Positions 15,894 through 36,084 of a stretch of DNA of 64,000 nucleotides are shown here, piece by piece. The notes under the pieces were generated by a model. The model ran no database searches. It was given only the letters and a program-made list of their open reading frames with translations, and was not told the DNA's origin. The translations under genes and the position numbers were made by a program. The first letter of the stretch is position 1; every line of letters starts with the position of its first letter. Source of the DNA: Bryobacterales bacterium (GTDB lineage: Bacteria; Acidobacteriota; Terriglobia; Bryobacterales; UBA6623); the NCBI GenBank assembly GCA_965208945.1, contig OZ242366.1, forward strand, positions 5,290,048 through 5,354,047, written 5' to 3'.

Positions 15894-15972
15894 TACCGAA
15901 CCAGTGTACCGAATGCGCCGCCCTGGCCCCGCTTCGTGACAGCCACATGGGAGTGGACAGAAAAAGATAAAA

Positions 15973-16242: not shown

Positions 16243-16264
16243 CTCGAACGTTCTCCCGGATTCG

Positions 16265-18837: not shown

Positions 18838-19835
18838 CCTGCATTTCTCACCACCCGACGGCCGAAGCACGCGATACGACCGCCAGGACTTCGTTGCGCT
18901 TGCTTGCCGTGCTCAACGTACTGTTCAAGTACGCCTGCGCGCGCCAAGCGGCTCGCGCCTCGTCCTGACGGCCCTCTCACCCACTTCGCCTCGCCACGTG
19001 GTGAGAAATGCAGGCTAGACTGCTTGTCATTTAGCAGCATCCTGTGCTCGGGCGGAACGTTGTAGATCTCTTTCGTACCCGAGACAGAGAAGCCAGCGGC
19101 GGCTGCAGCGGGGATTACCAAGTACACTCCGCTCACGAGATCCCATGGCCCTACTGTTACTATGCAGAACAAGGATGTAGCCCCCAGAGCGACCCACCCC
19201 AGCGTCCGTTTCTCGTATGGGCGTCGGGTCAGCACCTTGTGCACGGCCGTCTTCGGGTAGGCACGCGTCTGCCCGTCCTTGAGCAGGAGCGTGATGGAAT
19301 CGGCCGTCGCCGATTCGAAGCGGCCCTTGATCTTCCAGCTCCCAGGAGGGGCTGCGTCCTGGTACAGCCATATCCGGGTCTTGGTATTGTTCGCCAATGC
19401 CTGCACTCGGGCCCAGCCCACATTCTTCGTCAGCCTTAGCCTGAGCCGCTGATAGGCTGCCGATCCTTTGATCCATTTGTTTTTCCGGGCATAAAACCAA
19501 GGCGGCCTGCCGTATGTATTTCGCACCTCCGGGTTGGCGCCCGCTTCCAGCAACGCCTCGATCACCGCCGGGTCGGCGGTGTCCCGCGCCGCCCGATGCA
19601 GGGTGGTGAGTCCTTTGGGGTCCTGCTCGTTCGGGTCCCTCCCGGCGCTGAGACAGGCCCTCACCTCGTCCACCGTAGCGGACTCGAAAAACTTCGCTGT
19701 ATTCCAGTCCTTGCAGCCTTCCGCTGCCGCCGCCGGCAGCGGCAAACCGGCCACAAGCAGCAGGCATGCCAGCCCGGTGGCCGTGGCCTTCTTGAAAAGA
19801 CGTCCGTGGTTTCTGTTTCCCATGAGATTCCTCAT
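18834..19835 (-). CDS. Secreted ankyrin-repeat / beta-module / 2-TM protein, tandem paralog A (3' tail interrupted by MITE copy 4)
   Basis: I moved the start to ATG 19835 (MRNLMGNRNHGRLFKKATATGLACLLLVAGLPLPAAAAE signal peptide). The ANK motif is DPKGLTTLHRAARDTADPAVIEALLEAGANP. A beta-module (WARVQAL...KIKGRFESATADSITLLLKDGQTRAY) and two hydrophobic helices follow. The frame reads through the MITE to the TAG of its left CTAG flank. Confidence 0.75.
   Translation of the reverse strand: MRNLMGNRNHGRLFKKATATGLACLLLVAGLPLPAAAAEGCKDWNTAKFFESATVDEVRACLSAGRDPNEQDPKGLTTLHRAARDTADPAVIEALLEAGANPEVRNTYGRPPWFYARKNKWIKGSAAYQRLRLRLTKNVGWARVQALANNTKTRIWLYQDAAPPGSWKIKGRFESATADSITLLLKDGQTRAYPKTAVHKVLTRRPYEKRTLGWVALGATSLFCIVTVGPWDLVSGVYLVIPAAAAAGFSVSGTKEIYNVPPEHRMLLNDKQSSLHFSPRGEAKWVRGPSGRGASRLARAGVLEQYVEHGKQAQRSPGGRIACFGRRVVRNAG
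18838..19014 (+). mobile_element. MITE copy 4 (177 bp)
   Basis: It has perfect 17-bp TIRs CCTGCATTTCTCACCAC / GTGGTGAGAAATGCAGG and a perfect duplication, CTAG (18834-18837) / CTAG (19015-19018). Confidence 0.92.
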
Positions 19836-20027
19836 CGCAGCACCAGGCTGACCTGAAGCTTCTTGTTCAAAACCGTCTTTCCGCAATGCTCGAATGCCTC
19901 TCCGGCAATCTTCACGCACACAATGACACGCCTCAGTCGGTGCCCATAGGGGCACTCAGTCCCGTGGATCCTCCTGCTTTGTGGAATCGCTGTCCTGGTC
20001 ACCGGGCTGCTGGCTTCCTTGCGGCAG

Positions 20028-20861
20028 CTATCGGTATCCGGGAGGCACGTCATAAATCGTGCCCATCTCCGAGTTGACGAAAACAACGGCTGTTGCCCCA
20101 GCGGCAATACCTAAGTTAAGCGCAGCATAACTCGCGGGTAGATCCTGCACCCATAGACGAAACAATTCCGCTGCCAGCACAGAACCTGCGAGGGTGATCC
20201 ATCCCGGCCATCTTTTTGAGAACGGGCGGGGGATGCGTACCTTGCGTACATCCGACTTCGGGAAGGTACGTGTCTGTCCGTCCTTGAGCCACAGCGTGAT
20301 GGTGTCGGTCGTGGCCGAGTCGAAACGTCCTCTGATCCTCCGGTTCTCCTGGGGGACCGCGTCCCGGTACAAAGTCACTTCGGTCTTGGCGTTATGCGGC
20401 ACGACTTGCACACGGGACCAGTCCGCTTTTTTCGCCACCTTATTCACCTCGGACGCTAGCGACATTCTGAGCCGCTGAGAGACGGTCGAGCCTTTGATCT
20501 TTTTGTTCCTCCGTGCGTAATCCCAAGGTGTCCTGCCGGCTATGCTTGACGATCTCGGGTTGGCACCCGCTTCCAGCAATACCTTGATCACTACGGGGTC
20601 GGAGGTCTTTCGCGCCGCCCAATGCAAAGCGGTGAGTCCTTTGGGGTCCTGCTCGTTCGGATCCCTCCCGGCGCTGAGACAGGCCCTCACCTCGTCCACC
20701 GTGGCGGCCTCGAAAAACTTCGCTGTATTCCAGTCCTTGCAACTCTCCTCCGCCGCCGCCGGCAGCGGCAAGCCGGCCACAAGCAGCAGGCACGCCAGCC
20801 CGGCGGCCGTGGCCTTCTTGAGAAGACTTCCGTGGTTTCTGTTTCGCATGAGATTCCTCAT
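20028..20861 (-). CDS. Secreted ankyrin-repeat / beta-module / 2-TM protein, tandem paralog B (tail shortened by an in-frame TAG)
   Basis: Start at ATG 20861 (MRNLMRNRNHGSLLKK...). The architecture matches paralog A. It ends ...DVPPGYR-TAG, where the other copies have Met. A further 24 in-frame codons (20027..19956, including the original TGA) still encode the family tail LPQGSQQPGDQDSDSTKQEDPRD. Confidence 0.8.
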   Translation of the reverse strand: MRNLMRNRNHGSLLKKATAAGLACLLLVAGLPLPAAAEESCKDWNTAKFFEAATVDEVRACLSAGRDPNEQDPKGLTALHWAARKTSDPVVIKVLLEAGANPRSSSIAGRTPWDYARRNKKIKGSTVSQRLRMSLASEVNKVAKKADWSRVQVVPHNAKTEVTLYRDAVPQENRRIRGRFDSATTDTITLWLKDGQTRTFPKSDVRKVRIPRPFSKRWPGWITLAGSVLAAELFRLWVQDLPASYAALNLGIAAGATAVVFVNSEMGTIYDVPPGYR

Positions 20862-20981
20862 CGCAACATCAATCTGAGTCGAAGCTCCTCGTTCAAAACC
20901 GTCGTTCCGCAATGCTCGATGGCCTCGCCGGCCGTCTTCACGCGCATGATGACAAGCCTCAGGCGGCACTCACAGGGTCGC

Positions 20982-21896
20982 TCAATCCCGGGGATTCGCC
21001 TGCTTTGCAGACACGTTGTCTTGGTCACGGGACTGCTTGTCTCCCTGTGGTAGCATCCGGTACTCGGGCGGAACGCTGTAAATCGGACCCATCCCTGAGA
21101 AGAAAAAAGCAAGGACTGCAGACGGAAGGGTGGTTGTTGCGTGGACTCCAGCCATTGTTGACCCGGAGACATTGTCGACACTGGCGCTTATGCTGAGCAG
21201 AGTTTGCATGATCCCGAAAACAACTCCCAGCGTGATCCACCCCGGCGTTCGTTTAGAGAATGGACGGGGGACGAGAACCTTGTTCACTACCAACTTCGGA
21301 AAGGTGCGAGTCTGACCGCTTTTGAGCACGAGAGTGATGGAGTCGGCCGTGGCCGATTCGAAGCGACCCTTGAACCTGCGGACGGGGGCAGCGTCCTGGT
21401 GCAGCCGCACCTCGGTCTTTGTATTGCGCGACACGGCCATCACTCGGGTCCAGTCTGCCTTCTTCGCCACCTTTTTCGCCTCTGATGCTATCGCCATCCT
21501 GAGGCGCTCATAGGCAGCCGTCCTTTTGATCTTGCCGTTCGTTCGCGCGTAATACCAGGGTGTCCTGCCGGCTGTGCTGGACGTCCTCGGGTTGGCGCCC
21601 GCATCCAGCAGCGCCTCGATCACTGCGGGGTCGGAGGTTTTACGCGCCGCCCGATGCAGGGTGGTGAGTCCTTTTCTGTCCACCTCGTTCGGATCCCTCC
21701 CGGCGCTGAGACAGGCCCTCACCTCTTCCACCGTGGCGGACTCGAAAAACTTCGCTGTGTCCCAGTCCTTGCAACTCTCCTCCGCTGCCGCCGTCGGCAG
21801 CGGCAAGCCGGCCACGAGCAGCAGGCATGCCAGCCCGGCGGCCGTGGCCTTCTTGAAAAGACGGTCGTGGTTTCCGTTTGCCATGAGATTCCTCAT
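20982..21896 (-). CDS. Secreted ankyrin-repeat / beta-module / 2-TM protein, tandem paralog C
   Basis: Start at ATG 21896 (MRNLMANGNHDRLFKK...). It has a signal peptide, ANK (DRKGLTTLHRAARKTSDPAVIEALLDAGANP), a beta-module, 2 TM helices and the tail EYRMLPQGDKQSRDQDNVSAKQANPRD. Confidence 0.8.
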   Translation of the reverse strand: MRNLMANGNHDRLFKKATAAGLACLLLVAGLPLPTAAAEESCKDWDTAKFFESATVEEVRACLSAGRDPNEVDRKGLTTLHRAARKTSDPAVIEALLDAGANPRTSSTAGRTPWYYARTNGKIKRTAAYERLRMAIASEAKKVAKKADWTRVMAVSRNTKTEVRLHQDAAPVRRFKGRFESATADSITLVLKSGQTRTFPKLVVNKVLVPRPFSKRTPGWITLGVVFGIMQTLLSISASVDNVSGSTMAGVHATTTLPSAVLAFFFSGMGPIYSVPPEYRMLPQGDKQSRDQDNVSAKQANPRD

Positions 21897-22016
21897 CGCA
21901 ACACCAGGCTGACCTGAAGCTTCTTGTTGAAAACCGTTGTTCCGCAATGCTCGATGGCGTCTCCGGCAGTCTTGTCGCGCATGATGACACGCCTCAGGCG
22001 GCATCCTGGGGGTCAC

Positions 22017-22919
22017 TCAATCCCGTGGGTCCTCCTGCTTTGCAGACACGTTGCCCTGGTCACCGGGCTGTTTGTCTCCTTGCGGCTGCATCCGGTGCTC
22101 GAGCGGAACGTTGTAGATCCCTTTCAGCCGCGAGATATAGAAAAAAGCGGCTCCGGTCGGGAGGGCGTGAAATGCGTGACTCCCCAATCTCAGCGATACC
22201 GGCGGAGTTGATTCCGCAAACAGCAGAATCGAGATCTCAAGCGCCGCACTGCAAACCGCCATGGCAACCCACCCCGGCCATCGTTTCCGGATCGGGCGGC
22301 GGGTGAGCACCTTGCGCACGGCCAGCTTTGGGAAAGTGCGCACTTGCCCGTTCTCGAGCACGAGCGTGATGGAATCGGCCGTGGCCGATTGGAAGCGGCC
22401 CTTGATCTTCCTGTTTCCTTGCAGGGCTACGTCCTGGTACAACCGTATCTTGGTCTTTCGATGGTGCGGCACAGCTTGCACTTGGGACCAGTCCGCCTTC
22501 TTCGGCACCTTCACCGAAACGATCATGAGCCGCTGCCAGGCGTCGGAGCCTTGGATCTTTTTGTTCTTCCGCGCGTAATACCGGGGCAGCCTGCCGGCTA
22601 TGCTGGACGACCTCGGGTTGGCGCCCGCATCCAGCAACGCGTCGATCACCGCCGGGTCGGCGGTATCCCGCGCCGCCCGATGCAGGGCGGTGAGTCCTTT
22701 GGGGTCCTGCTCGTTCGAACCCCTCCCGGCGCTGAGACAGGCCCTCACCTCGCCCACCGTGGCGGACTTAAAAAACTTCGCAGTCCTCCAGCCCTTGCAG
22801 CTCTCCGCTGCCGCCGCCGGCAGCGGCAAGCCGGCCACGAGCAGCATGCACGCCAGCCCGGCGGACGTGGCCTTCTTGAGAAGACTTCCGTGGTTTCTGT
22901 TTCCCATGAGATTCCTCAT
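22017..22919 (-). CDS. Secreted ankyrin-repeat / beta-module / 2-TM protein, tandem paralog D
   Basis: Start at ATG 22919 (MRNLMGNRNHGSLLKK...). Same architecture, with the tail EHRMQPQGDKQPGDQGNVSAKQEDPRD. Confidence 0.8.
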   Translation of the reverse strand: MRNLMGNRNHGSLLKKATSAGLACMLLVAGLPLPAAAAESCKGWRTAKFFKSATVGEVRACLSAGRGSNEQDPKGLTALHRAARDTADPAVIDALLDAGANPRSSSIAGRLPRYYARKNKKIQGSDAWQRLMIVSVKVPKKADWSQVQAVPHHRKTKIRLYQDVALQGNRKIKGRFQSATADSITLVLENGQVRTFPKLAVRKVLTRRPIRKRWPGWVAMAVCSAALEISILLFAESTPPVSLRLGSHAFHALPTGAAFFYISRLKGIYNVPLEHRMQPQGDKQPGDQGNVSAKQEDPRD

Positions 22920-23039
22920 CGCAACACCAGGCTGACCTGAAGCTTCTTGTTCAAAACCGTTGTTCCGCAATGTTGGATGGCCTCTCCGGCAGTCTTGTCG
23001 CGCATGATGACACGCCTCAGGCGGCACACCCAGGGTCAC

Positions 23040-23951
23040 TCAATCCCGTGGATCCTCCTGCTCTATGGAACCGCTTTCCTGGTCGCCGGGCTGCTGGTCT
23101 CCTTGCGGCAGCATCCGGTGCTTGGGCGGGAGGTCGTAAATCGTACCCATGCCCGAGACGGAGAAAGCAGCCAGCGTGGCCACAAGCGTGATGATTGCGT
23201 GGCCCACAATTCTTTCTGAGGCGGTGGTCCGGGATTCGCTGATATCTATATTTACGAGAAATTCCGTCATCGCAAAAGCAACCCCCAAAGCGATCCACCC
23301 TGGCTTTCGTTTCTTGACAGGACGCCAAGTCCGCACCTTGCGCACGTCCTGCTTGTGCACAGTGCGCGTCTGTCCGCTCTTGAGCACGAGCGTGATGGAG
23401 TCGGCCGTAGCGGAGACGAAGCGTCCCTTGATCCTCAGGCTCGACGGAGGGGCTGCGTCCTCATACAGCCGCACCACGGTCTTTCGGTGGCTCGGCACGG
23501 CCTGCACTCGGGACCAGTCCGCCTTCTTCGCCACCTTTTTTGCCTCGGACGCTATCGCCATCCTGAGGCGCTCATAGGCGGCCGTGCCTTTGATTTTGCC
23601 GTTCGTCCGCGCGTAATACCAGGGTGTCCTGCCGGCTCTGCTGGACACCCTCGGGTTGGCGCCCGCATCCAGCAACGCCTCAATCACGGCCGGGTCGGAG
23701 GCATCCCGGGCCGCCCGATGCAGGGCGGTGAGTCTTTGTCTGTCTCGCTCGTTCGGGTCTCTCCCGGCGCTGAGACAGGTCCTCACCTGCACCACCGCAG
23801 CGGTCTCAAAAAACTTTGCTGTGTTCCAGTCCTTGCAACTCTCCTCCGCCGCCGCCGGCAGCGGCAAGCCGGCCACAAGCAGCAGGCAAACCAGCCCGGC
23901 GGCTGTGATCTTTTTGAGAAGACAGTCGTAGTTCCCAGTGGGTCTCGTCAT
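23040..23951 (-). CDS. Secreted ankyrin-repeat / beta-module / 2-TM protein, tandem paralog E (first in the array)
   Basis: 303 aa beginning MTRPTGNYDCLLKKITAAGLVCLLLVAGLPLPAAAEE. Same architecture, with the tail KHRMLPQGDQQPGDQESGSIEQEDPRD. Confidence 0.8.
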   Translation of the reverse strand: MTRPTGNYDCLLKKITAAGLVCLLLVAGLPLPAAAEESCKDWNTAKFFETAAVVQVRTCLSAGRDPNERDRQRLTALHRAARDASDPAVIEALLDAGANPRVSSRAGRTPWYYARTNGKIKGTAAYERLRMAIASEAKKVAKKADWSRVQAVPSHRKTVVRLYEDAAPPSSLRIKGRFVSATADSITLVLKSGQTRTVHKQDVRKVRTWRPVKKRKPGWIALGVAFAMTEFLVNIDISESRTTASERIVGHAIITLVATLAAFSVSGMGTIYDLPPKHRMLPQGDQQPGDQESGSIEQEDPRD

Positions 23952-23975
23952 CGCAGCACCAAGCTGACCTGAAGC

Positions 23976-24040
23976 TCCTCGTCCGACACCGCGGTGAGTC
24001 CTTGCGTGTCCTGCTCGTTCGGATCTTCCCGGCGCTCCTC
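23976..24040 (-). pseudogene. Remnant of a sixth ankyrin unit
   Basis: After the inter-unit spacer (23948-23976), the sequence GGTGAGTCCTTGCGTGTCCTGCTCGTTCGGATCTTCCCGGCGCT matches the ANK-coding segment GGTGAGTCCTTTGGGGTCCTGCTCGTTCGGATCCCTCCCGGCGCT of the intact units. The rest of the unit is absent. Confidence 0.55.
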
Positions 24041-25941: not shown

Positions 25942-28900
25942 ATGGAAGCAACGACCAGTTTCGAGGGGCAGGCGCTTCCCGGTCGCGGCGCTGCGTTGAT
26001 CGGCTCCAAAACCCCGGTTCGTCACTCTGGTTTCGCGATCTCGGGTGTGAGCTCTGCCGTGAGAACTATTTGTCCGTTCCTTGCCATGGCTGCAGTGTTG
26101 GCGGCAACGGATCTCGCATCCGCCCAACAGTTCGACCCCGTTGCCCGCGACATCCGCACCGGAGTCTACCGGGGCCACGTCGTCACCTACGAGGTTGTTG
26201 ACGGACTCGCGATCTGGGACGGCGATATCATCCTCGGCACCCCCGAGGAACTGAGCCCCGAGCCTATGCCGACACCCGGGAACCCGCTCGACGGCCGCAA
26301 CAAGATCTCAGCGGTTAGCAGCAAGGAAAGACTCTGGCCCGGCGGCATCATTCCCTACGTCATCGATCCGGAACTAACGAACCCGCACGTCCCTGTCGCG
26401 ATCCAGCATTGGAACGAGAACACCGTCATCCAGCTTGTGGCAAGAACGGATCAGCCGAACTGGGTTCGCTTTGAGCCCGGCAGAGGATGTTCGGCGGAAG
26501 TAGGCATGGTCGGCGGAGAACAGACAGTCTCTCTCAGCAAAGGCTGCAGCCCAGGAGACGTCGTTCATGAGATCGGTCACGCGGCCGGGCTCTGGCACGA
26601 GCACCAACGAAAAGATCGAGATCCCTACGTCTGGGTATCGCCCAGCCCCTTGGTTTTTGATCCATGGTCTTACGTGAAAGATGGGCCCTACGCAGTGCCT
26701 AGCGGCCCGTATGACTACGGTTCGAACATGCATTACGCTTGGCTCGGCACGTTAGTAACAATCCCGCCCGGCATAACGCTCGGAAGAGGCGGTCAGCAGC
26801 TCGGGACGGGCTCGAGTACAGGACTCTCCGCCGGGGATATCGACGGCGTCAGCCGGCTGTATGGGACGATCCCGACCAGGACAACCGTCTCGGCAAACGT
26901 CGCAGGTCTGCTGATAGAGGTTGACGGTGAAACTTACACCGCGCCGCACGGTTTCGACTGGGAGCCAGGCAGCATCCACACGATCGGCGTTGCGTCGCCC
27001 CAAAAGGACGTGCACGGGAGTGACTACATTCGATATCTATTCGCCAAGTGGAGCGACGGCGGTGCGCAAAGCCACTCCGTGACGGCATCTTCGGAAACCA
27101 CCGTCTTCATAGCGAATTTCATTGAGCAGATCAGGCCCGAGGTTACAGCACACCCTCCAGAGGGCGGGACCGTCAGGTTAGACCCTCCCACCGTCGACGG
27201 CTTCTATCCGTGGTTCTCTCTTGTCAAAGCCTACGCCGAACCCGCCGAGGGTTTCTCGTTCGAACACTGGAAACCCTGGTGGTTTCTACCGCTCCGCGGT
27301 GGCTTTTCCAGCAATCCCGCACTAAATCATGTCGGGCAAAGTTACCCGGCCTATTTCACACAGCAACCCCTTACCACGATCGACACGAACTTTCCGGGTA
27401 CCCATGTCCTAGTGGACGGCTCCGAGACACTCCTGCCCTCCAACTTTGCCTGGGAAGCCGGCAGCACTCACACGCTCGGATTCGGCGGTCCTATTGGTGA
27501 GGTCCAGACCGTCAACGGCTTGCCTGGCCACTTTATATTCGATGGCTGGAGCGACAACGGCGGCGCAACGCACAACATCACCGCTTCAGCCGAGCCGGCT
27601 ACGATCACGGCGAATTTCACGAGGCAGGTTTATGTAGAGACGTTTTCCCACGGATCGGGGGGGATAGAAGTGCAGCCCAGCGGTTCGGAGGGTGACTTCC
27701 ATAACCTCTCCACCACGGTTCACTTGACCGCGCGACCCGCTCCGGGTTTCAAGTTCGTGTCCTGGCTCGGAGACTTGTCCGGAACCAAGAACCCGCAATC
27801 GATGCTCATGGACTCCAACAAATGGGTCCGGGCTTTCTTTCTCGATGAGGAAACTTACAAATCGGCCAAGCTGACCTCCGGGAAACCATTCAACTTGCTC
27901 TTCGGTCCCGGCGGGGCCAGCGTGGAAGGCTACAACGGCTACTGGATTGACGTGCCGAGGGGGGCCACTCAACTCGACATTCGTCTCGTCACCACCATGC
28001 CAAACGCCGAGATCGACCTGTACGCAAACCGTGACATCCGTCCGAGCGCCATGTACGGCGCAAACAATGAAGGGCTCATCGGGTATGAAAGTCAGTACTC
28101 GGCCACGGGGCCGGGAGGCGACGAGACGATCACCATCACGTCGGCGTCAAATCCGCCCCTCGAACCGGGGCCTTACTTCATCGCCGTCCACGTACGCAGA
28201 CAGGGAGTGCGCGTCAATAGAACCTTGACCGCCGCCGTAACCGTCTCGGAGGAGGAGATTGCCGCCCAGGCGCCTCATTTCGGCATCCCTGCTTCCCTGA
28301 TCACCACGCAGGAAGGCGAGACACCGGCGCCGCAACGCCTCGAGATCCGCAACTCGGGCCGCGGGACGCTGGACTACGGAATCACCACGGACCAACCCTG
28401 GCTCTCCGTCTGGCCCAATCAAGGTTCCTCGGCGGGGGAAACGGACACGGTCGAGATTACCGCAGACCCGTCGAATCTGGAGCCGGGGACATACGAGGGC
28501 TCGATCACCATCATCGAGCAGCAACCTGCGGGAGGCTTTTCCGGCCTTTTCTCAAAGAGTACGACGCCCGCATGGCCGTTCACGGTGCCGGTGACGTTGA
28601 TTGTCATCCCGGAGAGTTCGGAGCCCCCCCGTTCAGTCCCCCCTTCCGAGCCTAATACCACGGGCCCTTCCGCGGGAGACGGCGGTCCGGCTGTCGAGGC
28701 TAGGCTATATGCCCCCAATGATGTGACCGTGGATGCGGCCGGCAACCTCTTCATCGCCGATACGGGCAACCGCCACATTCGTAAGGTGGACCCCTCTGGC
28801 ATCATTACCGTTATCGCCGGAATCGGTGAGGAGGGCTACACCGGGGACGGCGGCCCGGCGATCGACGCTCGGCTAGCCTACCCCGCAGGCGTGACAGTAG

Positions 28901-29670
28901 ATGCGGCCGGCAACCTCTTCTTCTCCGAATATTTCGACCACAGCGTCCGCAGGGTAGACCCCTCGGGAACCATTACCACGATCGCAGGAACGGGTGAGGA
29001 AGGCTTCGCCGGAGACGGTGGTCCGGCGGTCGAGTCGCAGCTATCCTCCCCCGCAGGCGTAGCCGTGGACGCGGCCGGCAACCTCTTCATCGCCGATTCT
29101 GGCAACCGCCGCATCCGTAGGGTGGACCCCTCGGGTAACATTTCCACCTTTGTCGGAGGAGGAGATGCTTCGGAGGACGGTGGCCCGGCTGTCCAGGCCC
29201 AGCTAGGCAGCCCCTCCGGCGTGGCCGTGGACGCGGCCGGCAACCTCTTCATCGCCCTTATCACCAATAGCTCCATACGTAAGGTGGACCCCTCGGGAAC
29301 CATTTCTACGATTGCCGGAGTCGGTCGGTGGGGCTTCTCCGGGGACGGCGGCCCGGCAGCACAGGCGCACTTGAGCACCCCCTCCGACGTAGCCGTGGAC
29401 GCGGCCGGCAACCTCTTCATCGCCGATGAAAACAATCACCGCATTCGCAGGGTGGACAGCTCGGGCATCATCACCACGATCGCCGGAAACGGTGAGCGGG
29501 GCTTCGCTGGTGATGGCGGACCTGCGATCCAAGCTCAGTTGGACCACCCTCGGGGCGTGGCCGTAGACGCGGCCGGCAACCTCTATATTGCCGATCATGG
29601 TAACCACCGCATCCGCAAGGTGGACCCCTCCGGCACCATTACCACCGTTGCTGGAACCGGAGAAATATAG
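25942..29670 (+). CDS. Large secreted multidomain protein: astacin (M12A) metalloprotease, beta-sandwich repeats, PPC domain, BACON-like domain and a six-bladed NHL propeller
   Basis: Contains the full astacin signature HEIGHAAGLWHEHQRKDRD (26566-26622) and the Met-turn SNMHY. InlB-B-repeat-like modules include APGFKFVSWLGDLSG. The PPC-like segment is YWIDVPRGATQLDIRLVTTMPNAEIDLYANRD. The BACON-like segment is LEIRNSGRGTLDYGITTDQPWLSVWP...GTYEGSITI. Six NHL blades read GDGGPA...VAVDAAGNLFIAD..NHRIRKVDPSG.ITTIAG. GTG 26047 (MSSAVRTICPFLAMAAVLAATDLASAQ) is a better signal-peptide start than ATG 25942. Confidence 0.85.
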   Translation: MEATTSFEGQALPGRGAALIGSKTPVRHSGFAISGVSSAVRTICPFLAMAAVLAATDLASAQQFDPVARDIRTGVYRGHVVTYEVVDGLAIWDGDIILGTPEELSPEPMPTPGNPLDGRNKISAVSSKERLWPGGIIPYVIDPELTNPHVPVAIQHWNENTVIQLVARTDQPNWVRFEPGRGCSAEVGMVGGEQTVSLSKGCSPGDVVHEIGHAAGLWHEHQRKDRDPYVWVSPSPLVFDPWSYVKDGPYAVPSGPYDYGSNMHYAWLGTLVTIPPGITLGRGGQQLGTGSSTGLSAGDIDGVSRLYGTIPTRTTVSANVAGLLIEVDGETYTAPHGFDWEPGSIHTIGVASPQKDVHGSDYIRYLFAKWSDGGAQSHSVTASSETTVFIANFIEQIRPEVTAHPPEGGTVRLDPPTVDGFYPWFSLVKAYAEPAEGFSFEHWKPWWFLPLRGGFSSNPALNHVGQSYPAYFTQQPLTTIDTNFPGTHVLVDGSETLLPSNFAWEAGSTHTLGFGGPIGEVQTVNGLPGHFIFDGWSDNGGATHNITASAEPATITANFTRQVYVETFSHGSGGIEVQPSGSEGDFHNLSTTVHLTARPAPGFKFVSWLGDLSGTKNPQSMLMDSNKWVRAFFLDEETYKSAKLTSGKPFNLLFGPGGASVEGYNGYWIDVPRGATQLDIRLVTTMPNAEIDLYANRDIRPSAMYGANNEGLIGYESQYSATGPGGDETITITSASNPPLEPGPYFIAVHVRRQGVRVNRTLTAAVTVSEEEIAAQAPHFGIPASLITTQEGETPAPQRLEIRNSGRGTLDYGITTDQPWLSVWPNQGSSAGETDTVEITADPSNLEPGTYEGSITIIEQQPAGGFSGLFSKSTTPAWPFTVPVTLIVIPESSEPPRSVPPSEPNTTGPSAGDGGPAVEARLYAPNDVTVDAAGNLFIADTGNRHIRKVDPSGIITVIAGIGEEGYTGDGGPAIDARLAYPAGVTVDAAGNLFFSEYFDHSVRRVDPSGTITTIAGTGEEGFAGDGGPAVESQLSSPAGVAVDAAGNLFIADSGNRRIRRVDPSGNISTFVGGGDASEDGGPAVQAQLGSPSGVAVDAAGNLFIALITNSSIRKVDPSGTISTIAGVGRWGFSGDGGPAAQAHLSTPSDVAVDAAGNLFIADENNHRIRRVDSSGIITTIAGNGERGFAGDGGPAIQAQLDHPRGVAVDAAGNLYIADHGNHRIRKVDPSGTITTVAGTGEI
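28660..29670 (+). repeat. Six tandem NHL-blade coding repeats
   Basis: The core GT(G/A)GA(T/C)GCGGCCGGCAACCTC recurs at 28729, 28897, 29065, 29227, 29395 and 29563. Spacings are 168, 168, 162, 168 and 168 nt. Confidence 0.9.
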
Positions 29671-29755
29671 TTTCAGCGGAGACGGCGGTTCAGGCGGTCG
29701 CAGCCGGGCTATACTCTGTGGAATAGCGTACTACTTCCCAGGAGATCATACCGTC

Positions 29756-30775
29756 ATGAAACATCGTCACACCCTATTGCTGATTCCCGTAATTCTGCTG
29801 GCCGCCGTTCCTGCTTTCGCCGACCATCCGGATGCCGAAGCGCTGACTTGCGCGGACCGCTCGGTCAGCGCCCGGGCCGTGCGAACGACACAGGACGTTC
29901 AGGCGTTCGTGCAGTGCGCCTACGAGTACGCCCAGGAAATGGGCCTGGAGGAGGCCCGACGCGCCTTCAACGAAGATGAGCGTTGGAAAAGCGGCCCGAT
30001 CTATGTCTTCGTCTCCGAAGCGACACCGATGAGCGACCAGGCTCGACTCTTCATCTTCCCGCCTACTCCGGAGAGGGAAGGAACGTCGCTGGGACTGCTG
30101 ATCGACGCCTACGGCAACGACTACTACAAGGAACAGCACCGGATCGTGAGTGAATTCGGCGCGGGCTGGCTCTACTACTCCTTCACCAATTTCACCACGG
30201 GCCGGGACGAGCCGAAGCTTGCCTACATCAAGGGCATCGACTGGTACGGGACGCCGGCCGCGATCGGCGCCGGGATCTACCTCCGCGACATCCCGGGCAC
30301 GTGCGAGAGCGAAGATGTGAACGCCATGGGGCTCGAAGCCGAGCCTTCCGACGAACGGCTGCAGGCGTTCGTCCGCTGCGCCGCCATGGAGCTGGAATCG
30401 AAAGGCTATTTCGCCACGATCACGCTGGGAGCCGATCCACGCTGGAAGCATGGCTCAATCTACCTGTTCGGCCTGGACACCTACGGCAGCGCGCTGTTCA
30501 GCGGCGATCCCGACAGCGGGCAGCCGGGCGCCGGCGCTCCGGAGTTGAACGACATGATGGACGGACCCTTCGGCGGCCGGGACGTGGTGAGCCTGGGGGA
30601 TGCGTTCGGGGAATCCCTTCTGTACTACAAGGCACGGAATCCCGCCACCGGCGAGATGCAGAACAAGGTGACGTTCGTCAAAAGGGTCGTTGTCTTTGGC
30701 CTGCCGGTGCTGATCGGAGCCGGCTATTATCCGGGCTATACGCCCGGGCCCGACTACGGTAACTTCCCCTTCTGA
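29756..30775 (+). CDS. Secreted stand-alone tandem Cache-like (sCache_2-type) sensor-domain protein
   Basis: I moved the start to ATG 29756 (MKHRHTLLLIPVILLAAVPAFA). It has two similar halves: ...AFNEDERWKSGPIYVFV...LYYSFTNFTTGRDEPKLAYIKGIDWYGTPAAIGAGIY and ...GADPRWKHGSIYLFG...LLYYKARNPATGEMQNKVTFVKRVVVFGLPVLIGAGYY. This pattern is typical of Cache_2 domains. There is no TM segment or output domain. Confidence 0.6.
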   Translation: MKHRHTLLLIPVILLAAVPAFADHPDAEALTCADRSVSARAVRTTQDVQAFVQCAYEYAQEMGLEEARRAFNEDERWKSGPIYVFVSEATPMSDQARLFIFPPTPEREGTSLGLLIDAYGNDYYKEQHRIVSEFGAGWLYYSFTNFTTGRDEPKLAYIKGIDWYGTPAAIGAGIYLRDIPGTCESEDVNAMGLEAEPSDERLQAFVRCAAMELESKGYFATITLGADPRWKHGSIYLFGLDTYGSALFSGDPDSGQPGAGAPELNDMMDGPFGGRDVVSLGDAFGESLLYYKARNPATGEMQNKVTFVKRVVVFGLPVLIGAGYYPGYTPGPDYGNFPF

Positions 30776-30913: not shown

Positions 30914-30947
30914 CCTGCATTCCTCGCCGCGTGGTGAGAAATGCAGG
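30914..30947 (+). mobile_element. 34-bp mini-MITE: the two termini joined, with the interior deleted
   Basis: Sequence is CCTGCATTCCTCGCC-GC-GTGGTGAGAAATGCAGG, a hairpin made of the left and right termini. Flanks are GTAG / CTCG. Confidence 0.7.
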
Positions 30948-31023: not shown

Positions 31024-31485
31024 ATGGAAGCCGATACAGAAATCTCAAGAAAGGTCAACACAACCATGAGGCCGCAACTTTCCTGGAGTTATTGGAAGAC
31101 GCCCGTGATTTTCGGAGCGAGCTTCTGCATGCTGCAAATCCTGGTGGCGTTCGCGCGATTCGGGGGCCAGAAAGGTTGGATATTGGCCAACCCGTACGAG
31201 ATACCGGCAATGCTTTTCGGGCTCGCCATGTTCTTTCTGTGCGGCCTGCTGGCTGGTTTGCTGGTGCAACACCTGTTGAGGGGCTCTACCGGAGCCTGGC
31301 GCTACGTCCTGCTGGGCGGCGTGGGGCTGGCGACTCCTTTCGCGATCATGTTCAGCTTGGGCGGGGGGTTGCTCGGTCCGCCTGGAGTACTGATCGGAGC
31401 TCTGGTTCCCTACCTGGTGCTGGTCGGAGTCCCGGTATTGCTCCATCAATCCTGGTTGCACTTTCGCAAGCCCGCGACGCGGTGA
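31024..31485 (+). CDS. Small hypothetical membrane protein (about 4 TM helices)
   Basis: I moved the start to ATG 31024 (or 31066). Hydrophobic helices include VIFGASFCMLQILVAFA, MLFGLAMFFLCGLLAGLLV, YVLLGGVGLATPFAIMF and VLIGALVPYLVLVGVPVLL. I cannot name a family. Confidence 0.5.
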   Translation: MEADTEISRKVNTTMRPQLSWSYWKTPVIFGASFCMLQILVAFARFGGQKGWILANPYEIPAMLFGLAMFFLCGLLAGLLVQHLLRGSTGAWRYVLLGGVGLATPFAIMFSLGGGLLGPPGVLIGALVPYLVLVGVPVLLHQSWLHFRKPATR

Positions 31486-31492
31486 AAAAGCC

Positions 31493-31683
31493 GTGATTCG
31501 TGTCCCGTGTCTCGTGTTTCGTGAAAAGCATAAAAGCCGTGATTCGTGACTCGTGACTCGTGTTTCGTGAAAACCTCGGAATTCGCGCTGGCTTGCGCGG
31601 CGCGCCTGGAAAAAAGTCTTGTTTCGTGATTCGTGTCTCGTGACCCGCATGGACTTTGTCTCGGCGCGTGGTGGGAATGCTGG
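31493..31683 (+). mobile_element. Composite repeat: three heptamer tracts plus a MITE-type right terminus
   Basis: Tracts lie at 31493-31529, 31539-31575 and 31619-31648. The module CTCGGAATTCGCGCTGGCTTGCGC sits at 31575 (also at 10603). The right end GTGGTGGGAATGCTGG (31668-31683) is followed by TTAA (31684-31687), which contains the mfd stop codon. Confidence 0.8.
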
Positions 31684-34600
31684 TTAAACCATCGTTGCCG
31701 GGGGTTCCGGTCTGTGTTCGAGTCTGTCCAGGAGGGCGTCGAGATCCTTGAGCGCCGTGGCCGCGCTGAGGGTCTGCTTCTCCGTCCGCCGCCACTCGAG
31801 GAGCCTATCGGGAGAGAATGTCACGCCGGGAGTCTCCGCCAAGAACCGCATCAGCCGGGTTGCATCCACGCGCGAGTCTTCGCTGAAGCGCAGCATCCAG
31901 CAGCCCCGCTTGCGCTCAATCGACTGGATGCGCATTCTCTCGGCCCGTGATTTGACGAGGGCGTGGTCGGCGAGATGATGCACCGGCTTGGGCAACGAGC
32001 CGTAGCGGTCGCGCAACTCCTCGAGCAGACGGCTGCGGTCTTCGCGGGTTCGGATCTCGGCTAGGCGCTTGTAGGCCTGAAGACGTTGTGTCTCGTCGCG
32101 GATGTAATCTGTGGGGATGTGCAGGTCCAAGCGCAGCTTGACCGTCGTGCGGGCTTCTTCCTCGACCTCCTCGCCCTCGAGCTTCCGCATGGCCTCTTCC
32201 AGCAGACGGCAGTAGGTTTCGAAACCGACGGCGGCAATCTGACCATGCTGCTCGGCGCCCAACAGATTCCCGGCGCCTCGCAATTCGAGGTCGAGAGCCG
32301 CGATCTTGAAGCCCGATCCCAATTCGCTGAATTCCCGAAGCGCCGCGAGCCGCTTGCGGGCTGTCGATGACAACTCCACGTCTTCATCGACCAGCAGGTA
32401 TGCATAGGCGCGGCGATTCGAGCGCCCCACACGACCGCGCAACTGGTAGAGCTCCGACAATCCGAACAGGTCCGCCCTTTGAATGAGCATCGTGTTGGCC
32501 AACGGGATGTCGAGTCCGTTCTCGACAATCGTGGTCGACAACAGAACGTCGTACTCATACCGCATGAACTTGAAGATCACTTTCTCCAGTTCCCTGGTCG
32601 ACATCTGACCGTGACCGACCCCGATACGCGCCCGCGGCACAAGCTTCTGCAAGTAAGCGGCAATCCGCCAAATGGATTCAACCCGGTTGTAGATGAAATA
32701 CACCTGACCCTTGCGGGCCAGCTCGCGTTCGATGGCGTCTCGAATGATCTGGTCCGACGACGGCGCGACGACGGTTTGAATGGCGAGCCGGTCGCGGGGA
32801 GGTGTCTGGATGATCGAGATATCCCGCAAGCCCACCAGCGACATCTGAAGCGTTCTCGGAATCGGGGTCGCGGTGAGCGTGAGCACGTCCACGTTTTTCG
32901 TGAGTTGCTTCAAGCGCTCCTTGTGGCGGACGCCGAAGCGTTGTTCCTCATCGACAATCAAGAGTCCGAGGTCGGAAAAACCGACATCCTTGGACAGCAA
33001 GCGGTGGGTGCCGATCAATACATCGATCCTGCCCTCGGCAAGCCTCTCGAGAATCTCCTTCTGCTGGGAGCGAGTCCGAAACCGCGTGAGGCTTTCGATC
33101 TCGATAGGGAACGAGGCGAAGCGCTGTGAAAACGTCTCGAAGTGCTGAAACGCGAGAACCGTCGTCGGCGCGAGCAAGGCGACCTGTTTGCCATCCCCCA
33201 ATGCCTTGAAAACGGCCCGCATGGCCACTTCCGTCTTTCCGAACCCGACGTCGCCACACACGAGCCGGTCCATCGGCCGGTCCGACTCCATGTCCTTCTT
33301 GATGTCCTTGACGGACTGAATCTGATCCGGAGTCTCGGTGAACTCGAAAGCCTCTTCGAACTCCCGCTGCCAATTGCTGTCCGCTGAAAACGCAAACCCA
33401 GGCGTCTTGCCTCGCGCGGCGTGAAGCTTGATCAGCTCATCAGCCATGTCGAGAAGCTTCGCCTTGACGCGGGCTCGGGTGCGAGACCAGGTCTGTCCAC
33501 CCATGCGGTCGAGCGGCGGCGGCTTCCCACCGGCGCCGTGATACTTCTGGATCAAGTCGAGCCGATGCAGCGGCAGATAGAGCCGGGCGCGTTCGGCGTA
33601 CTCGATCAGCATCAAGTCTTCGCGCCGTCCGGCGTGCTCGATCTGCCGCAGTCCGACGAACCGCCCGATACCATGCTCGGCGTGGACGACCAGATCGCCT
33701 TCCTTGAGATCCTGCAGGTCGGAAAGGAAGGTCGAGCGAGCTGACTTGCCTTTCTTCGGACGCGCAACCAAGTCGGAAGATGCGAAAAGATCTTCGTGAC
33801 CATAAAGGACAAGGTTGCTATCCGGAAGCGTCACGCCGCGGCGAATCGGCGATTCCACCAACATGACATTGGCCAGCGGGCCGGCCAGGCGGGCTTTCTC
33901 CTCGAGATAGGGACTGGCCGCCTTGAAAGGGTCTTTCAGGCTGAGCTGAAAGCCGATTTCGTTTTCCGTGAGAATGTCAGCGAGCCGCTCGACGTCGCCG
34001 GGGGAATGCCCGGCGATCAAAGCCCGGCGTCCGCCACTCACTTGAGCCTGCAATTCGCGCACGAAGTGCGGCACGTTACCCTGGAAGTTCGGCGTGGGCT
34101 GCGTGCCGAGATGCAGCCACGATTCGCCTGCGGCCTCGACCGCAAGCTCTTCCAGGTGCAACTGCGAACCTCGTTGCGCTTCTTCGGCGAAGCCTGACGG
34201 CGTGAAGTAGAAATTCGCGGGGGCCGGTCCGACGCTGCCCGACGCCTCGTAGCCGTCTTCGAGTTTCTCCCACAACTTTTCGCCATCGGCCTGAATCGCC
34301 GCCCGCTCGGACCAGACCATCAGCGGGTTGTCGAACAAATCCAAAATCGAGCTCGTGCGCGCGGCGGTACTCTGCGCACTGAACTCCCAGCCAAGAGGAA
34401 GGATCTCGTGATCCTCCGCATCTCCGTTCGCGTTCTCATCGACTCGGCCCGGCGCCGCCACGGGATATTCCGTCAACGGGAGCAACAAGGCCTGATCCAC
34501 CCGCTGGATCGATTTCTGGTTCTCCGCATCGAAGAACCGGATCGATTCGACTTGATCACCCAACATCTCGATACGAACCGGGTGCGGAGCTTCGGGAGAA

Positions 34601-35187
34601 TACACGTCGATGATCCCGCCTCGCAGGGAGAACTGTCCGACCATCTCGACGGGGTCGTGCTTCCCGTAGCCGACCGAGGCGAGGCCTTCAAGCAGATCTT
34701 CGACGAAGAACTCGTCCCCGAGTTCAATCCTCCAAGCGAGATTACGAAGGAACTCCTTCCGGGGGATCTTCATCAGCGCGGACCGAATCGGGACAACGGC
34801 GATCGAAGCCGCGCCTTCGGCGATGCGCCACAGCCCGATACCGCGCCGCTCGCTGACTTCAGGGTGCGGGGATTGCCCGTGGTACGGAAGAACCTCGTGC
34901 GCGGGCAGGACGAAGGGCGGCCCGCGATGTTTCGAGAAATCGAGCAGATCGTGAAACGCCGTGAGCGTCTCGCAAAGCGCCTCGGCAACGGGATTCGACT
35001 CAACCAGCAAGACCATCGGCCGGTCGGTCTGCTTGTACAGCAGGAGCAGGTAGAGGGCCTTAGCCGTGGCGTTGAGCCCCGACAGCCGCAGTGTTTGCGG
35101 CTCAGACCTCCTGACGGCGTGTTCCAGCGCCAGGAACGCAGGGTGGCGCGAAGCCACATCGAAGAAATCAGTGAGGCTAACCTGCAT
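31684..35187 (-). CDS. mfd: Transcription-repair coupling factor
   Basis: 1167 aa. The helicase motifs GDVGFGKTEVAMRA, LLIVDEEQRFGV and LTLTATPIPRTLQMSL, and the overall length, match Mfd. ATG 35187 lies inside the left TIR of the element at 35181-35435. GTG 35157 is an alternative start. Confidence 0.92.
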   Translation of the reverse strand: MQVSLTDFFDVASRHPAFLALEHAVRRSEPQTLRLSGLNATAKALYLLLLYKQTDRPMVLLVESNPVAEALCETLTAFHDLLDFSKHRGPPFVLPAHEVLPYHGQSPHPEVSERRGIGLWRIAEGAASIAVVPIRSALMKIPRKEFLRNLAWRIELGDEFFVEDLLEGLASVGYGKHDPVEMVGQFSLRGGIIDVYSPEAPHPVRIEMLGDQVESIRFFDAENQKSIQRVDQALLLPLTEYPVAAPGRVDENANGDAEDHEILPLGWEFSAQSTAARTSSILDLFDNPLMVWSERAAIQADGEKLWEKLEDGYEASGSVGPAPANFYFTPSGFAEEAQRGSQLHLEELAVEAAGESWLHLGTQPTPNFQGNVPHFVRELQAQVSGGRRALIAGHSPGDVERLADILTENEIGFQLSLKDPFKAASPYLEEKARLAGPLANVMLVESPIRRGVTLPDSNLVLYGHEDLFASSDLVARPKKGKSARSTFLSDLQDLKEGDLVVHAEHGIGRFVGLRQIEHAGRREDLMLIEYAERARLYLPLHRLDLIQKYHGAGGKPPPLDRMGGQTWSRTRARVKAKLLDMADELIKLHAARGKTPGFAFSADSNWQREFEEAFEFTETPDQIQSVKDIKKDMESDRPMDRLVCGDVGFGKTEVAMRAVFKALGDGKQVALLAPTTVLAFQHFETFSQRFASFPIEIESLTRFRTRSQQKEILERLAEGRIDVLIGTHRLLSKDVGFSDLGLLIVDEEQRFGVRHKERLKQLTKNVDVLTLTATPIPRTLQMSLVGLRDISIIQTPPRDRLAIQTVVAPSSDQIIRDAIERELARKGQVYFIYNRVESIWRIAAYLQKLVPRARIGVGHGQMSTRELEKVIFKFMRYEYDVLLSTTIVENGLDIPLANTMLIQRADLFGLSELYQLRGRVGRSNRRAYAYLLVDEDVELSSTARKRLAALREFSELGSGFKIAALDLELRGAGNLLGAEQHGQIAAVGFETYCRLLEEAMRKLEGEEVEEEARTTVKLRLDLHIPTDYIRDETQRLQAYKRLAEIRTREDRSRLLEELRDRYGSLPKPVHHLADHALVKSRAERMRIQSIERKRGCWMLRFSEDSRVDATRLMRFLAETPGVTFSPDRLLEWRRTEKQTLSAATALKDLDALLDRLEHRPEPPATMV

Positions 35188-35435
35188 TTCTCAGCACTTG
35201 TCGTCCGGAGAACACGGTAAAAAGGCCGTGGTTAGTGGATAGTGGATAGTTATTAGTGAAAACCATTGGCGGAGGACTGGTTCGCTCCAGAAGAAATGTC
35301 TGACGGCCCGGGGAACCTTAAAGGCCGTGATTCGTAACAACCCTTACAAGCCGTGTTGCCGGCTCCAAGCGGCTTGCGCCTCCTCCTGACGGCTCTCTGA
35401 CACACTTCACCTCGCCAGGTAGCGGGAAATGCAGG
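35181..35435 (+). mobile_element. 255-bp long-form MITE: both TIRs plus an internal heptamer tract and hairpin module
   Basis: The left end is CCTGCATTTCTCAGCAC and the right end is GTAGCGGGAAATGCAGG. Flanks are CTAA (35177-35180) / CCAA (35436-39). Inside are the variant tract GTGGTTA GTGGATA GTGGATA GTTATTA GTGAAAACC (35228-35264), a hairpin module (35279-35317) and GTGATTC (35327-35333). Confidence 0.85.
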
Positions 35436-35445
35436 CCAACGGCAA

Positions 35446-35919
35446 TCAAGGGTTTCGATCGAGGATGGTCTGCACCAGATCGGTCGTGGAGTAACCCGGC
35501 TCGATCGGAATGGGAAAAACGCGTCCTCCGGACTCTTCGACGATCTCACGGCCTGCGATCCAGTGGCTCCAGTCCGAACCCTTGACGAGAACGTCGGGAA
35601 GCAGCTTTTCGAGGAGCTCGCACGGCGTCTCCTCGTCGAAGACCGTCACCGCATCCACCGCCTCCAGCGCGCCCAGGACGGCACCCCTTTCCCCGGCAGG
35701 CAGAATCGGACGCGCATCTCCCTTCAAGCGACGTACGCTCTCGTCTCCGTTGATTGCTACCACCAGCACGTCTCCATGCTCGCGCGCTGTTTCGAACAGG
35801 CGGACGTGGCCGGGGTGCAAAAGGTCAAAGCAGCCGTTCGTGAACACGACGGTCCGCCCCTCTTCGCGCCAGACACGGCGTTTCTCGATCAAGTCAGAAC
35901 GCTTCAAGAGAGGTCCCAT
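35446..35919 (-). CDS. hldC: D-beta-D-heptose 1-phosphate adenylyltransferase (RfaE domain II-type cytidylyltransferase)
   Basis: VVFTNGCFDLLHPGHVRLF (HxGH nucleotidyltransferase motif), ...VVAINGDESVRRLKG..., and a length of 157 aa from ATG 35919. The track ORF starts at 35961. Confidence 0.75.
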   Translation of the reverse strand: MGPLLKRSDLIEKRRVWREEGRTVVFTNGCFDLLHPGHVRLFETAREHGDVLVVAINGDESVRRLKGDARPILPAGERGAVLGALEAVDAVTVFDEETPCELLEKLLPDVLVKGSDWSHWIAGREIVEESGGRVFPIPIEPGYSTTDLVQTILDRNP

Positions 35920-36084
35920 GGAAGAGCCGTTGCGAGTAAGTTCTGGTGGAGAGGAATCCATTGTACCGTCCGCATCATCGGTATCCAGCCTGCCCGAAAA
36001 CCGCGAACCTGCGCTGGAAAGCCCCGGATGCCGGCCGAGCTATCGGAGCCTACTGCGCCCGGAAGCGCTCTCCGCGGCGCAGAA

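Follow-up and report, generated by a model that had tools for sequence, protein, structure and literature searches.

A 64,000-nt stretch of contig OZ242366.1 from a member of the Bryobacterales (Acidobacteriota), referred to here as the window and used for all coordinates, carries on its minus strand an hldC-like gene and mfd, the gene for the transcription-repair coupling factor. Between the two lies a 255-nt transposable element of the miniature inverted-repeat type (MITE), within whose terminal repeat the mfd open reading frame (ORF) opens (Table 1). The minus strand reads ...GATCGAAACCC-TTGA-TTGCCG-TTGG-(CCTGCATTTCCCGC ... GTGCTGAGAAATGCAGG)-TTAG-CCTCACTGATTTCTTCGATGTG..., with the element in parentheses, and mfd is now 258 nt away from hldC through the element. 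A preliminary description of this DNA had placed the mfd ATG at bases 5-7 of the repeat, with a TGA two codons upstream, and had delimited the 255-nt element with CTAA/CCAA flanks differing by one mismatch; reading of the sequence agrees with the former coordinates and confirms the latter. Because the TGA is in frame, mfd can have no start further upstream than the repeat ATG. The Mfd protein matches the equivalog model TIGR00580 over its full length (1033.8 bits, with a cutoff of 800), and its Pfam domains UvrB_inter, CarD_TRCF_RID, DEAD, Helicase_C and TRCF were all found. The hldC product shows a clear cytidylyltransferase-like fold and matches rfaE_dom_II (TIGR02199) with E = 9e-52 and 174.7 bits, just below the cutoff of 181.5. 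An exact-protein look-up returned no match on record for the exact 171-aa hldC product, so the true hldC start may lie downstream of the one called.

Table 1. Features of the hldC-mfd junction in the window. The relay frame is the reading frame that enters the element from the orphaned TTG; anti-SD denotes pairing with the anti-Shine-Dalgarno sequence of 16S rRNA.
Feature	Coordinates	Strand	Remarks
mfd (transcription-repair coupling factor)	31684..35187	-	1167 aa; opens at the terminal-repeat ATG
Alternative start GTG	35155..35157	-	codon 11 of the present ORF; anti-SD duplex -2.6 kcal/mol
Target-site duplication, mfd side	35177..35180	-	TTAG on the mfd strand (CTAA on +); TAG 35179-35177 is the relay-frame stop
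29-codon relay remnant	35177..35266	-	ATG 35266 to TAG 35179-35177; overlaps the mfd ATG by 11 nt; anti-SD -0.8 kcal/mol
MITE	35181..35435	.	255 nt; composite variant with canonical repeat-proximal parts and an interior of degenerate heptad repeats
mfd-proximal terminal repeat	35181..35197	+	CCTGCATTTCTCAGCAC; reverse complement GTGCTGAGAAATGCAGG; canonical copies GTGGTGAGAAATGCAGG
Repeat-donated ATG	35185..35187	-	bases 5-7 of the repeat CCTGCAT starting at 35181; furthest-upstream possible mfd start
In-frame TGA, two codons 5' of the ATG	35191..35193	-	part of the repeat (GG/GC-TGA-GAA-ATG), a family-wide feature
ORF of 43 codons running from the orphaned TTG into the element	35318..35449	-	ended by TAA 35320-35318
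hldC-proximal terminal repeat	35419..35435	-	CCTGCATTTCCCGCTAC
Target-site duplication, hldC side	35436..35439	-	TTGG on the mfd strand (CCAA on +); one mismatch to the other copy
Orphaned 5' stub of ancestral mfd	35440..35449	-	TTGATTGCCG; holds the ancestral TTG 35449-35447, overlapping the hldC stop
hldC-like gene (D-glycero-beta-D-manno-heptose 1-phosphate adenylyltransferase domain)	35446..35961	-	stop TGA 35448-35446; start codon putative

The two terminal repeats of the element, CCTGCATTTCTCAGCAC and CCTGCATTTCCCGCTAC, agree at 13 of 17 positions, the canonical 17-nt repeat being CCTGCATTTCTCACCAC. The repeat sequence CCTGCATTTCYC cannot be a chance match, since it occurs 21 times in the window with at most one mismatch, as opposed to 0.65 expected occurrences. 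Overall the window holds 23 repeat ends, 17 of them with an outward-facing ATG, and about ten element copies, mostly of about 177 nt and flanked by 4-nt duplications that are mostly of the form YTAR (CTAG, CTAA or TTAA; Y, pyrimidine; R, purine). The element interior contains no transposase gene in the ORF list of the window, only ORFs no larger than small chance ORFs, and the element gave no protein family match; likewise, no Rfam family reached its gathering score in the window, the sole match near the element being at chance level (E = 0.26). In the copy at mfd, the hldC-side half matches the canonical copies, and the interior is composed of CACGAAT-like heptad repeats and variable 24-nt units.

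A metagenome scan for GTGGTGAGAAATGCAGGYTAR recovered at least 120 contigs from many habitats, and the matches listed comprise 128 distinct element ends and 94 distinct element copies. Among these 94 copies the lengths peak at 176 and 177 nt, with additional minimal forms of 34 and 50 nt. On one such contig (L098, positions 118-1762), different from that of the window, we found a 1645-bp element with the same ends (CCCGCAT.../...ATGCAGG), a CTAG duplication and a transposase of the IS1380 family of insertion sequences (IS). The transposase is split by a frameshift into two ORFs, which match model NF033539 at positions 2-228 and 229-419 with E = 2.4e-66 and 2.9e-45. Members of the IS1380 family are about 1.55-2.0 kb long, have ends beginning with CC and generate 4-5 bp duplications, and the L098 element fits this description in size, CC ends and 4-nt duplication. 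As it combines the same ends and duplication with an IS1380 transposase, the MITE family is, on sequence grounds, of the IS1380 type, with the L098-type element as its apparent cognate full-length partner. An IS5-type parent, guessed from the YTAR form of the 4-nt duplication, was dropped once this element had been found.

Empty and filled sites at mfd

Relatives of the mfd junction (labelled L001-L011; L043, L065, L098, L133 and L134 denote metagenome or other-gene loci) were collected in two ways. A protein search with the N-terminal region of Mfd yielded a few close relatives, whose contigs were then read at the junction, and a scan of one genome per species added five metagenome-assembled genomes of Bryobacterales (L007-L011). 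From the naming of several source contigs (PANK22-1, COLA18-1, ZHEN22-1, RHO3_bin, APA_bin and the prefix MKWU01, in L003, L004, L005, L008, L009, L065 and L133), many of these Bryobacterales contigs may come from marine sponge microbiomes. Eight relatives lack the element, with Mfd identities to the window protein of 50-94%: L001, L002, L004, L005 and L006 from the protein search (83-50%), and L009 (94%), L010 (91%) and L011 (83%) from the genome scan. Four sites are filled, namely the window, L003, L007 (98%) and L008 (96%), and in all of them the element has the same position and orientation, the same TTGG/TTAG flanks and a preserved ATG. Because these sites share position, orientation and imperfect flanks, they derive from a single older insertion in the common ancestor of a small Bryobacterales clade, and this insertion post-dates the split from the L009 lineage.

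All eight empty sites, down to 50% Mfd identity, have a TTG start of mfd that overlaps the TGA stop of hldC (TTGA), and carry TTGATTCT... at the position of the orphaned stub. Such an overlap had been predicted in the preliminary description as the state before insertion, and relatives with a junction not coupled through TTGA, which would have spoken against it, were looked for among the empty sites; none was found. This ancestral overlap, conserved across the wider clade, is of a kind typical of translational coupling. The closest empty site, L009, reads TTGATTCTCGTCGGCCTCACTGAT at the junction, i.e. TTG ATT CTC GTC GGC CTC ACT GAT TTC TTC GAT GTG, encoding M I L V G L T D F F D V. With the element and a single flank copy taken out, the window reads TTG ATT GCC GTT (A/G)GC CTC ACT GAT..., of the same length and in the same frame. 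The M I A V S L T D reconstructed earlier thus stands in length and frame; in its residues it differs from the M I L V G L T D of L009. Likewise, the insertion does lie within early mfd, only not 9 nt into the gene as had been stated: ten nucleotides precede the duplicated target, which corresponds to nt 11-14 of the ancestral ORF, in codons 4-5. The N-termini of the empty-site proteins conform to MIL(V/A/P)(G/S)L..(F/Y)F, with MTHPVL in L006, and those recovered by the protein search include MILASLR(D/E)FFDVAARHP, MILPGL.EFF and MIHPAIRDLF, as well as a 97%-identical fragment with MQVSLTDFF as in the window. The present 5' end of mfd is ...G(G/C)TGAGAAATGCAGG followed by TTAG, by which M-I-(A/P/L)-V-(G/S)-L-T-D has become M-Q-V-S-L-T-D, the element contributing two codons (M-Q) and one base to Mfd.

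A number of other features of these loci were also recorded. In the 50% relative, L006, mfd is called as two ORFs of 596 and 524 aa lying 86 nt apart (2501-5952), which could result from a frameshift, from misassembly or from a gene truly in two parts; truncated mfd calls also occur on several low-coverage contigs of long reads (L001, L002). Among the mfd-site elements of L003, L007 and L008, one measures 201 nt, the length of the L007-type junction, and two measure 225 nt; with the 255 nt of the window all are multiples of three, which may be a coincidence. About 78 nt of the window copy have no counterpart in the sister genomes, and the interiors of the elements in L003, L007 and L008 differ in having one to two extra copies of a 24-nt unit (GGCGCGAGCCGGACGGAGAAAAAA-like). 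A second repeat family, consisting of heptad arrays of CGTGATT / CGTGTTT / CGTGTCT preceded by AAAGCCGTG, occupies window positions 9710-11310, 15937-16172 and 31466-31642 and often adjoins half-copies of the MITE, as at 11285-11362 and 16170-16247. The heptad module recurs inside the mfd-site element of L003, L007 and L008 as well as in L065 (2362-2500), where it sits in a second element that lies upstream of the methylmalonyl-CoA mutase gene; the heptads of the window copy at mfd (35314-35338) are degenerate, CACTAATAACTATCCACTATCCACTAACC. A 34-nt minimal element at 30914-30947 is composed of two terminal repeats back to back (CCTGCATTCCTCGCCGCGTGGTGAGAAATGCAGG); this form occurs six times, and the 50-nt form three times, among the metagenome loci listed, and both may be deletion derivatives or excision footprints. 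Elsewhere in the window, five tandem repeats of about 1026-1038 nt with 70-98% identity (19181-23991), which start beside a MITE copy at 18838-19014, look like an array of paralogous genes, and a 286-nt unit is present four times with alternating 168/330-nt spacing at 28712-29663, partly within the ORF 29588-30775.

Genes opening at the repeat ATG

Of the 128 element ends among the matches listed, 11 have an ORF of 150 aa or more beginning at the repeat ATG, and eight of these 11 are recognisable genes. We judged each case individually by aligning the product to its family model and recording where the model begins relative to the repeat ATG. In five of the eight, coding for methylmalonyl-CoA mutase, a serine-dehydratase-like protein, MiaA, HisG and thiamine diphosphokinase, the family model begins 0-7 residues from the repeat ATG, and conserved sequence already surrounds the next in-frame start. 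A radical-SAM gene is likely a sixth case. The acetyl-CoA synthetase and LarA-type racemase genes were rejected, as each has its own downstream start where the family model begins and is in frame by chance. The suggestion made earlier, that the outward ATG at the ends of this family could act as a portable start codon, thereby gains independent support from five other genes that have no alternative start before their conserved residues, one of which, the mutase, could be checked in filled and empty relatives. In the listed matches, the real genes read in either of the other two frames all start on their own, 4-103 nt past the element, as expected if insertions into 5' coding regions survive only in the frame of the ATG. 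Within the window, the end at mfd is the only one to open a real gene at its ATG; two further ORFs opening at repeat ATGs (101 and 121 aa) were rejected as genes, having no family match and overlapping larger ORFs. A frame test comparing the stop-free runs that adjoin the repeat in frame 0 and frame +1 was uninformative for the listed matches: runs reaching 150 codons or more numbered 11 and 19, respectively, shadow ORFs of GC-rich DNA make up most of those in frame +1, and in frame +2 the target's TAR closes every run. Hence this test was replaced by the alignment to family models.

Removal of the element and one copy of the duplication exposes an in-frame native start in the mutase, miaA, hisG, kinase and radical-SAM genes, and in three of these five the start is placed exactly one codon ahead of the target. 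The radical-SAM gene, with a perfect CTAG duplication, would have changed from ATG GCT AGC to ATG CAG GCT AGC; the native beginnings of the thiamine diphosphokinase and miaA genes read ATG TTG AGT and GTG GCA AGA, respectively; and in hisG the native ATG lies ten codons upstream, with GAGGGAG. For the serine-dehydratase-like gene of L043 the native start could not be reconstructed owing to tandem elements: two or more MITE copies lie directly upstream (440-1310), and the gene opens at the ATG of the last repeat.

The mutase genes, which judging from the source names also come from Bryobacterales-like Acidobacteriota, provide one empty and two filled sites. The empty relative L133 reads ATG CCA AGC GAA ACG GTT AAA CCC (MPSETVKP, continuing as MPSETVKPDRS) with the target TTAA, and the filled L134 and L065 begin with MQVKP and MQVRP (MQV(K/R)PDRS). 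In the filled loci the orphaned native ATG has decayed, to ACC in L134 and ACG in L065. The stub has undergone further changes in L065 (2590-2640) and L134 (990-1030) relative to L133 (1190-1225), and an in-frame TTG five codons upstream is kept in all three loci.

Initiation of mfd and its alternatives

The sequence evidence suggests that translation of Mfd probably starts now at the repeat-borne ATG rather than at GTG 35157. The segment of residues 5-10 (L-x-D/E-F/L/Y-F/L) is retained among acidobacterial Mfd proteins even where identity falls to about 40%, and the presence of this conserved segment, L-T-D-F-F-D, between the ATG and the GTG argues that it is still translated. If the repeat ATG is used, the N-terminal tryptic peptide of Mfd would be (M)QVSLTDFFDVASR; a protein begun at the GTG would open with MASR.... 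Canonical copies of the element have GGUGA 3 nt upstream of the ATG, which for the 16S tail GAUCACCUCCUUUCU is equivalent to optimal spacing, and in the window copy this is GCUGA. Duplex energies with the anti-SD sequence were computed against the canonical 3' tail of 16S rRNA, which was assumed and is not this genome's own; they amount to -7.4 kcal/mol for the canonical repeat, -8.6 for L008, -6.9 for both L007 and L003, and -3.2 for the window ATG.

The reading frames running through the element bear on how ribosomes might reach this ATG. In L003, L007 and L008 the frame of the orphaned TTG is stop-free through the whole element, for 72-80 codons, and terminates at the TAG within the duplicated TTAG, 8 nt past the A of the new ATG (ATGCAGGTTAG). 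The preliminary description held that the insertion uncoupled mfd from hldC; the start has indeed been separated, and the uncoupling is perhaps only partial, as the TTG frames of the sister genomes read through to this point. The layout follows from geometry: whenever the repeat ATG shares the reading frame of the gene body, the native frame begins its passage through the element with the second base of the latter, and it leaves either at the TAR of the distal duplication (+8), if the length is divisible by three, or, with 176 nt, at the TGA of the repeat (-6). The radical-SAM, thiamine diphosphokinase and hisG insertions share the first arrangement (177 nt, TAR at +8) and the mutase has the equivalent second one (176 nt, TGA at -6). 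If a copy is called relay-competent when its earliest stop lies from -6 to +8 relative to the ATG, five of six independent events qualify, as against 31% of all element orientations (P = 0.013).

The reading that we favour is as follows. An IS1380-type MITE inserted into codons 4-5 of mfd, leaving the TTG, with 10 nt, on the hldC side, and translation of mfd would start at the in-frame ATG carried by the repeat. At canonical copies, with GGUGA 3 nt upstream and stops in the other two frames (TGA at -6, TAR at +8), a ribosome from the orphaned native start would read through the element, terminate beside the ATG and restart there; in the window the relay is cut and the Shine-Dalgarno (SD) match weakened to GCUGA, so that initiation would be direct and probably weak. 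More tentatively, we suggest that the ends of these MITEs could serve in general as gene-start cassettes, comprising GGUGA, an ATG and stops within 8 nt in the other frames. By this proposal, in-frame insertions at the 5' ends of genes would be tolerated, native signals would feed the restart, and the N-termini and coupling of housekeeping genes may have been rewritten repeatedly in Bryobacterales and related bacteria.

Several observations weigh against this picture. The anti-SD duplex of the window ATG is weaker than the window-wide median of -4.5 kcal/mol, and the predicted RNA fold pairs the terminal repeats with each other, placing the ATG within a basal stem of about 12 bp; the fold of the whole element is no more stable than that of shuffled controls (z = -1.16). 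No filled genome differs from another in the nine codons that lead from the ATG to the GTG, which at a synonymous divergence (dS) of about 0.1 is uninformative. The relay frame of the window is interrupted at a TAA that lies 130 nt ahead of the ATG. The enrichment of relay-competent events is modest, with P = 0.10 when they are compared to the 176/177-nt copies, 49% of which are competent. Stop-free frames are also common in these GC-rich elements, canonical copies having two to three, and element lengths are not confined to multiples of three. Two stronger claims fare poorly: an open read-through frame as proof of selection is weakened by the two to three stop-free frames per canonical copy together with the modest enrichment, and selection for lengths divisible by three is not supported, 176 and 177 nt being equally common (35:22:37 for the three classes modulo three among the 94 listed copies).

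A variant that also has the ATG in use differs in how the ribosomes get there, namely mainly by termination and restart from the native start, here the hldC-coupled TTG, rather than by direct SD binding, with the short ORF through the element ending at the TAR (+8) or TGA (-6) and its translation also melting the hairpin of the repeats. The open TTG frames of the three sister genomes, the recurrence of the same geometry at four other genes and the excess of relay-competent events all speak for it, and there is a precedent in the mycobacterial MIRU ORFs that overlap flanking genes (PMC3184786). It has to contend with the TAA in the window, a read-through frame at miaA that stops 42 nt before the ATG, the competence of about half of the 176/177-nt copies in any case, and the decay of the annotated native ATG in the mutase loci, though the upstream in-frame TTG remains there. 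We regard it as a plausible route, with a somewhat less than even chance of being the principal one.

It is unlikely, in our estimate, that mfd starts instead at GTG 35157, which would leave the repeat ATG as an unused in-frame codon and Mfd without its first ~11 ancestral residues. All filled genomes do have this GTG, the anti-SD match of the window ATG is weak, and that ATG is predicted to lie inside the stem formed by the two terminal repeats. Yet the anti-SD match of the GTG is weaker still, and a start there would remove the conserved L-x-D/E-F-F segment. Moreover, the other genes rescued by this MITE family have no such downstream start, the next in-frame start of the mutase being codon 49. 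The codon is GTA in the first empty sites (L001, L002, L004), for which reason a compensating change to GTG was considered; it was ruled out, since GTG is already present in the empty L009 and L010 (L011 has GTC) and thus pre-dates the insertion.

Less probable again is that the element acts primarily as an outward promoter, from which mfd would be transcribed alone, the start codon being secondary. IS1380-family elements such as ISEcp1 drive neighbouring genes, and the distance of 258 nt by which the element parts mfd from hldC would suit such a role. Against this, neither a sigma-70-like promoter nor a terminator turned up within the element or close to it in a crude scan not tuned to Acidobacteriota, and a start codon would be needed all the same.

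Finally, the state of the gene itself was assessed by pairwise Nei-Gojobori estimates of the ratio of nonsynonymous divergence to dS (dN/dS). An intact 1167-aa mfd ORF is present in the window, L007 and L008, for which dS is 0.10-0.115 and dN/dS is 0.107-0.129, and comparisons involving empty-site genomes give an indistinguishable range of 0.07-0.16. Because all divergence among the filled genomes post-dates the insertion, purifying selection has acted on mfd since then, and it is still a working gene, which must be expressed. That mfd was inactivated and is a decaying pseudogene in these genomes, as the physical separation of its native start and hldC coupling might suggest, is highly improbable in view of 1167-aa ORFs persisting in three genomes diverged to dS of about 0.10 with the same dN/dS (0.11-0.13) as lineages without the element.

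Comparison with known repeats and implications

That bacterial repeats may carry start signals is already known: in-frame fusion of repeats to a gene's 5' or 3' end is frequent (PMC3184786), and the ORFs of the mycobacterial MIRUs (Supply 1997) overlap the flanking genes of their operon (PMC3184786), the principle being represented by REP2, MIRU and 5' ORF extensions. The present element resembles bacterial MITEs such as Correia/NEMIS of Neisseria, RUP, Nezha and Chunjie in its small size, its lack of coding sequence, its terminal inverted repeats, the duplication of its target and its numerous copies, as well as in its filled and empty sites between relatives, an RNA that can form a long hairpin and a full-length cognate IS with the same ends. 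For NEMIS, RNase III-type cleavage at the repeat hairpin is known. It differs from them in that its ends match an IS1380-family element, that its repeat has an outward ATG with a GGUGA SD-like match and close stops in the other two frames, and that it repeatedly replaces the first codons of housekeeping genes. REP2 of Neisseria (Parkhill 2000; Morelle 2003; PMC3184786) has no terminal inverted repeats or known transposase and carries a promoter, whereas here the ATG is inside a transposon terminal repeat and the fusion arose by insertion into an existing coding region, with the ancestral state documented. MIRUs are likewise small intra-operon repeats whose own ORFs overlap flanking stops and starts, which is compatible with translational coupling being kept; they are, however, intergenic, while our element lies inside the first codons of the downstream gene and supplies a new start, and in the window the relay is broken. 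With the IS1380 family, including ISEcp1, the element shares the cognate 1645-bp form with its IS1380 transposase, CC ends and 4-nt duplication, and members of that family activate neighbouring genes; the known activation is transcriptional, through an outward promoter, and the one proposed here is translational, by a 177-nt transposase-less derivative. As with Rickettsia palindromic elements, BRE and the BOX/RUP 5' extensions, a repeat joins an ORF without destroying the gene, but those add internal or terminal peptide segments, and here only two codons are added, which replace the start.

A literature search with the repeat sequence returned unrelated eukaryotic primers only, and searches combining MITE with IS1380 or with translational coupling gave nothing relevant in the literature searched, absence being no proof of novelty. 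Within that scope, we found no description of an IS1380-type MITE terminal repeat supplying a putative start, of the stop-ATG-stop layout or of the apparently recurrent replacement of N-termini.

The mfd locus offers a clean natural example of a gene surviving a transposon hit in its first codons, with ancestral state, derived state and selection all documented. Since the same MITE family does this at mfd, the mutase and probably miaA, hisG, thiamine diphosphokinase and others, the repeat ATG has the look of a genuine start signal that can be used again and again, and not of a single accident. For annotation, this implies that N-termini of the form MQ(A/V) in these genomes are element-derived and that the orphaned stubs are not genes. 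For operon evolution, it presents a case in which a conserved overlapping stop/start junction has been replaced by an insertion, and the stop-ATG-stop layout at the end of the element provides a testable model for restart of translation across an inserted element.

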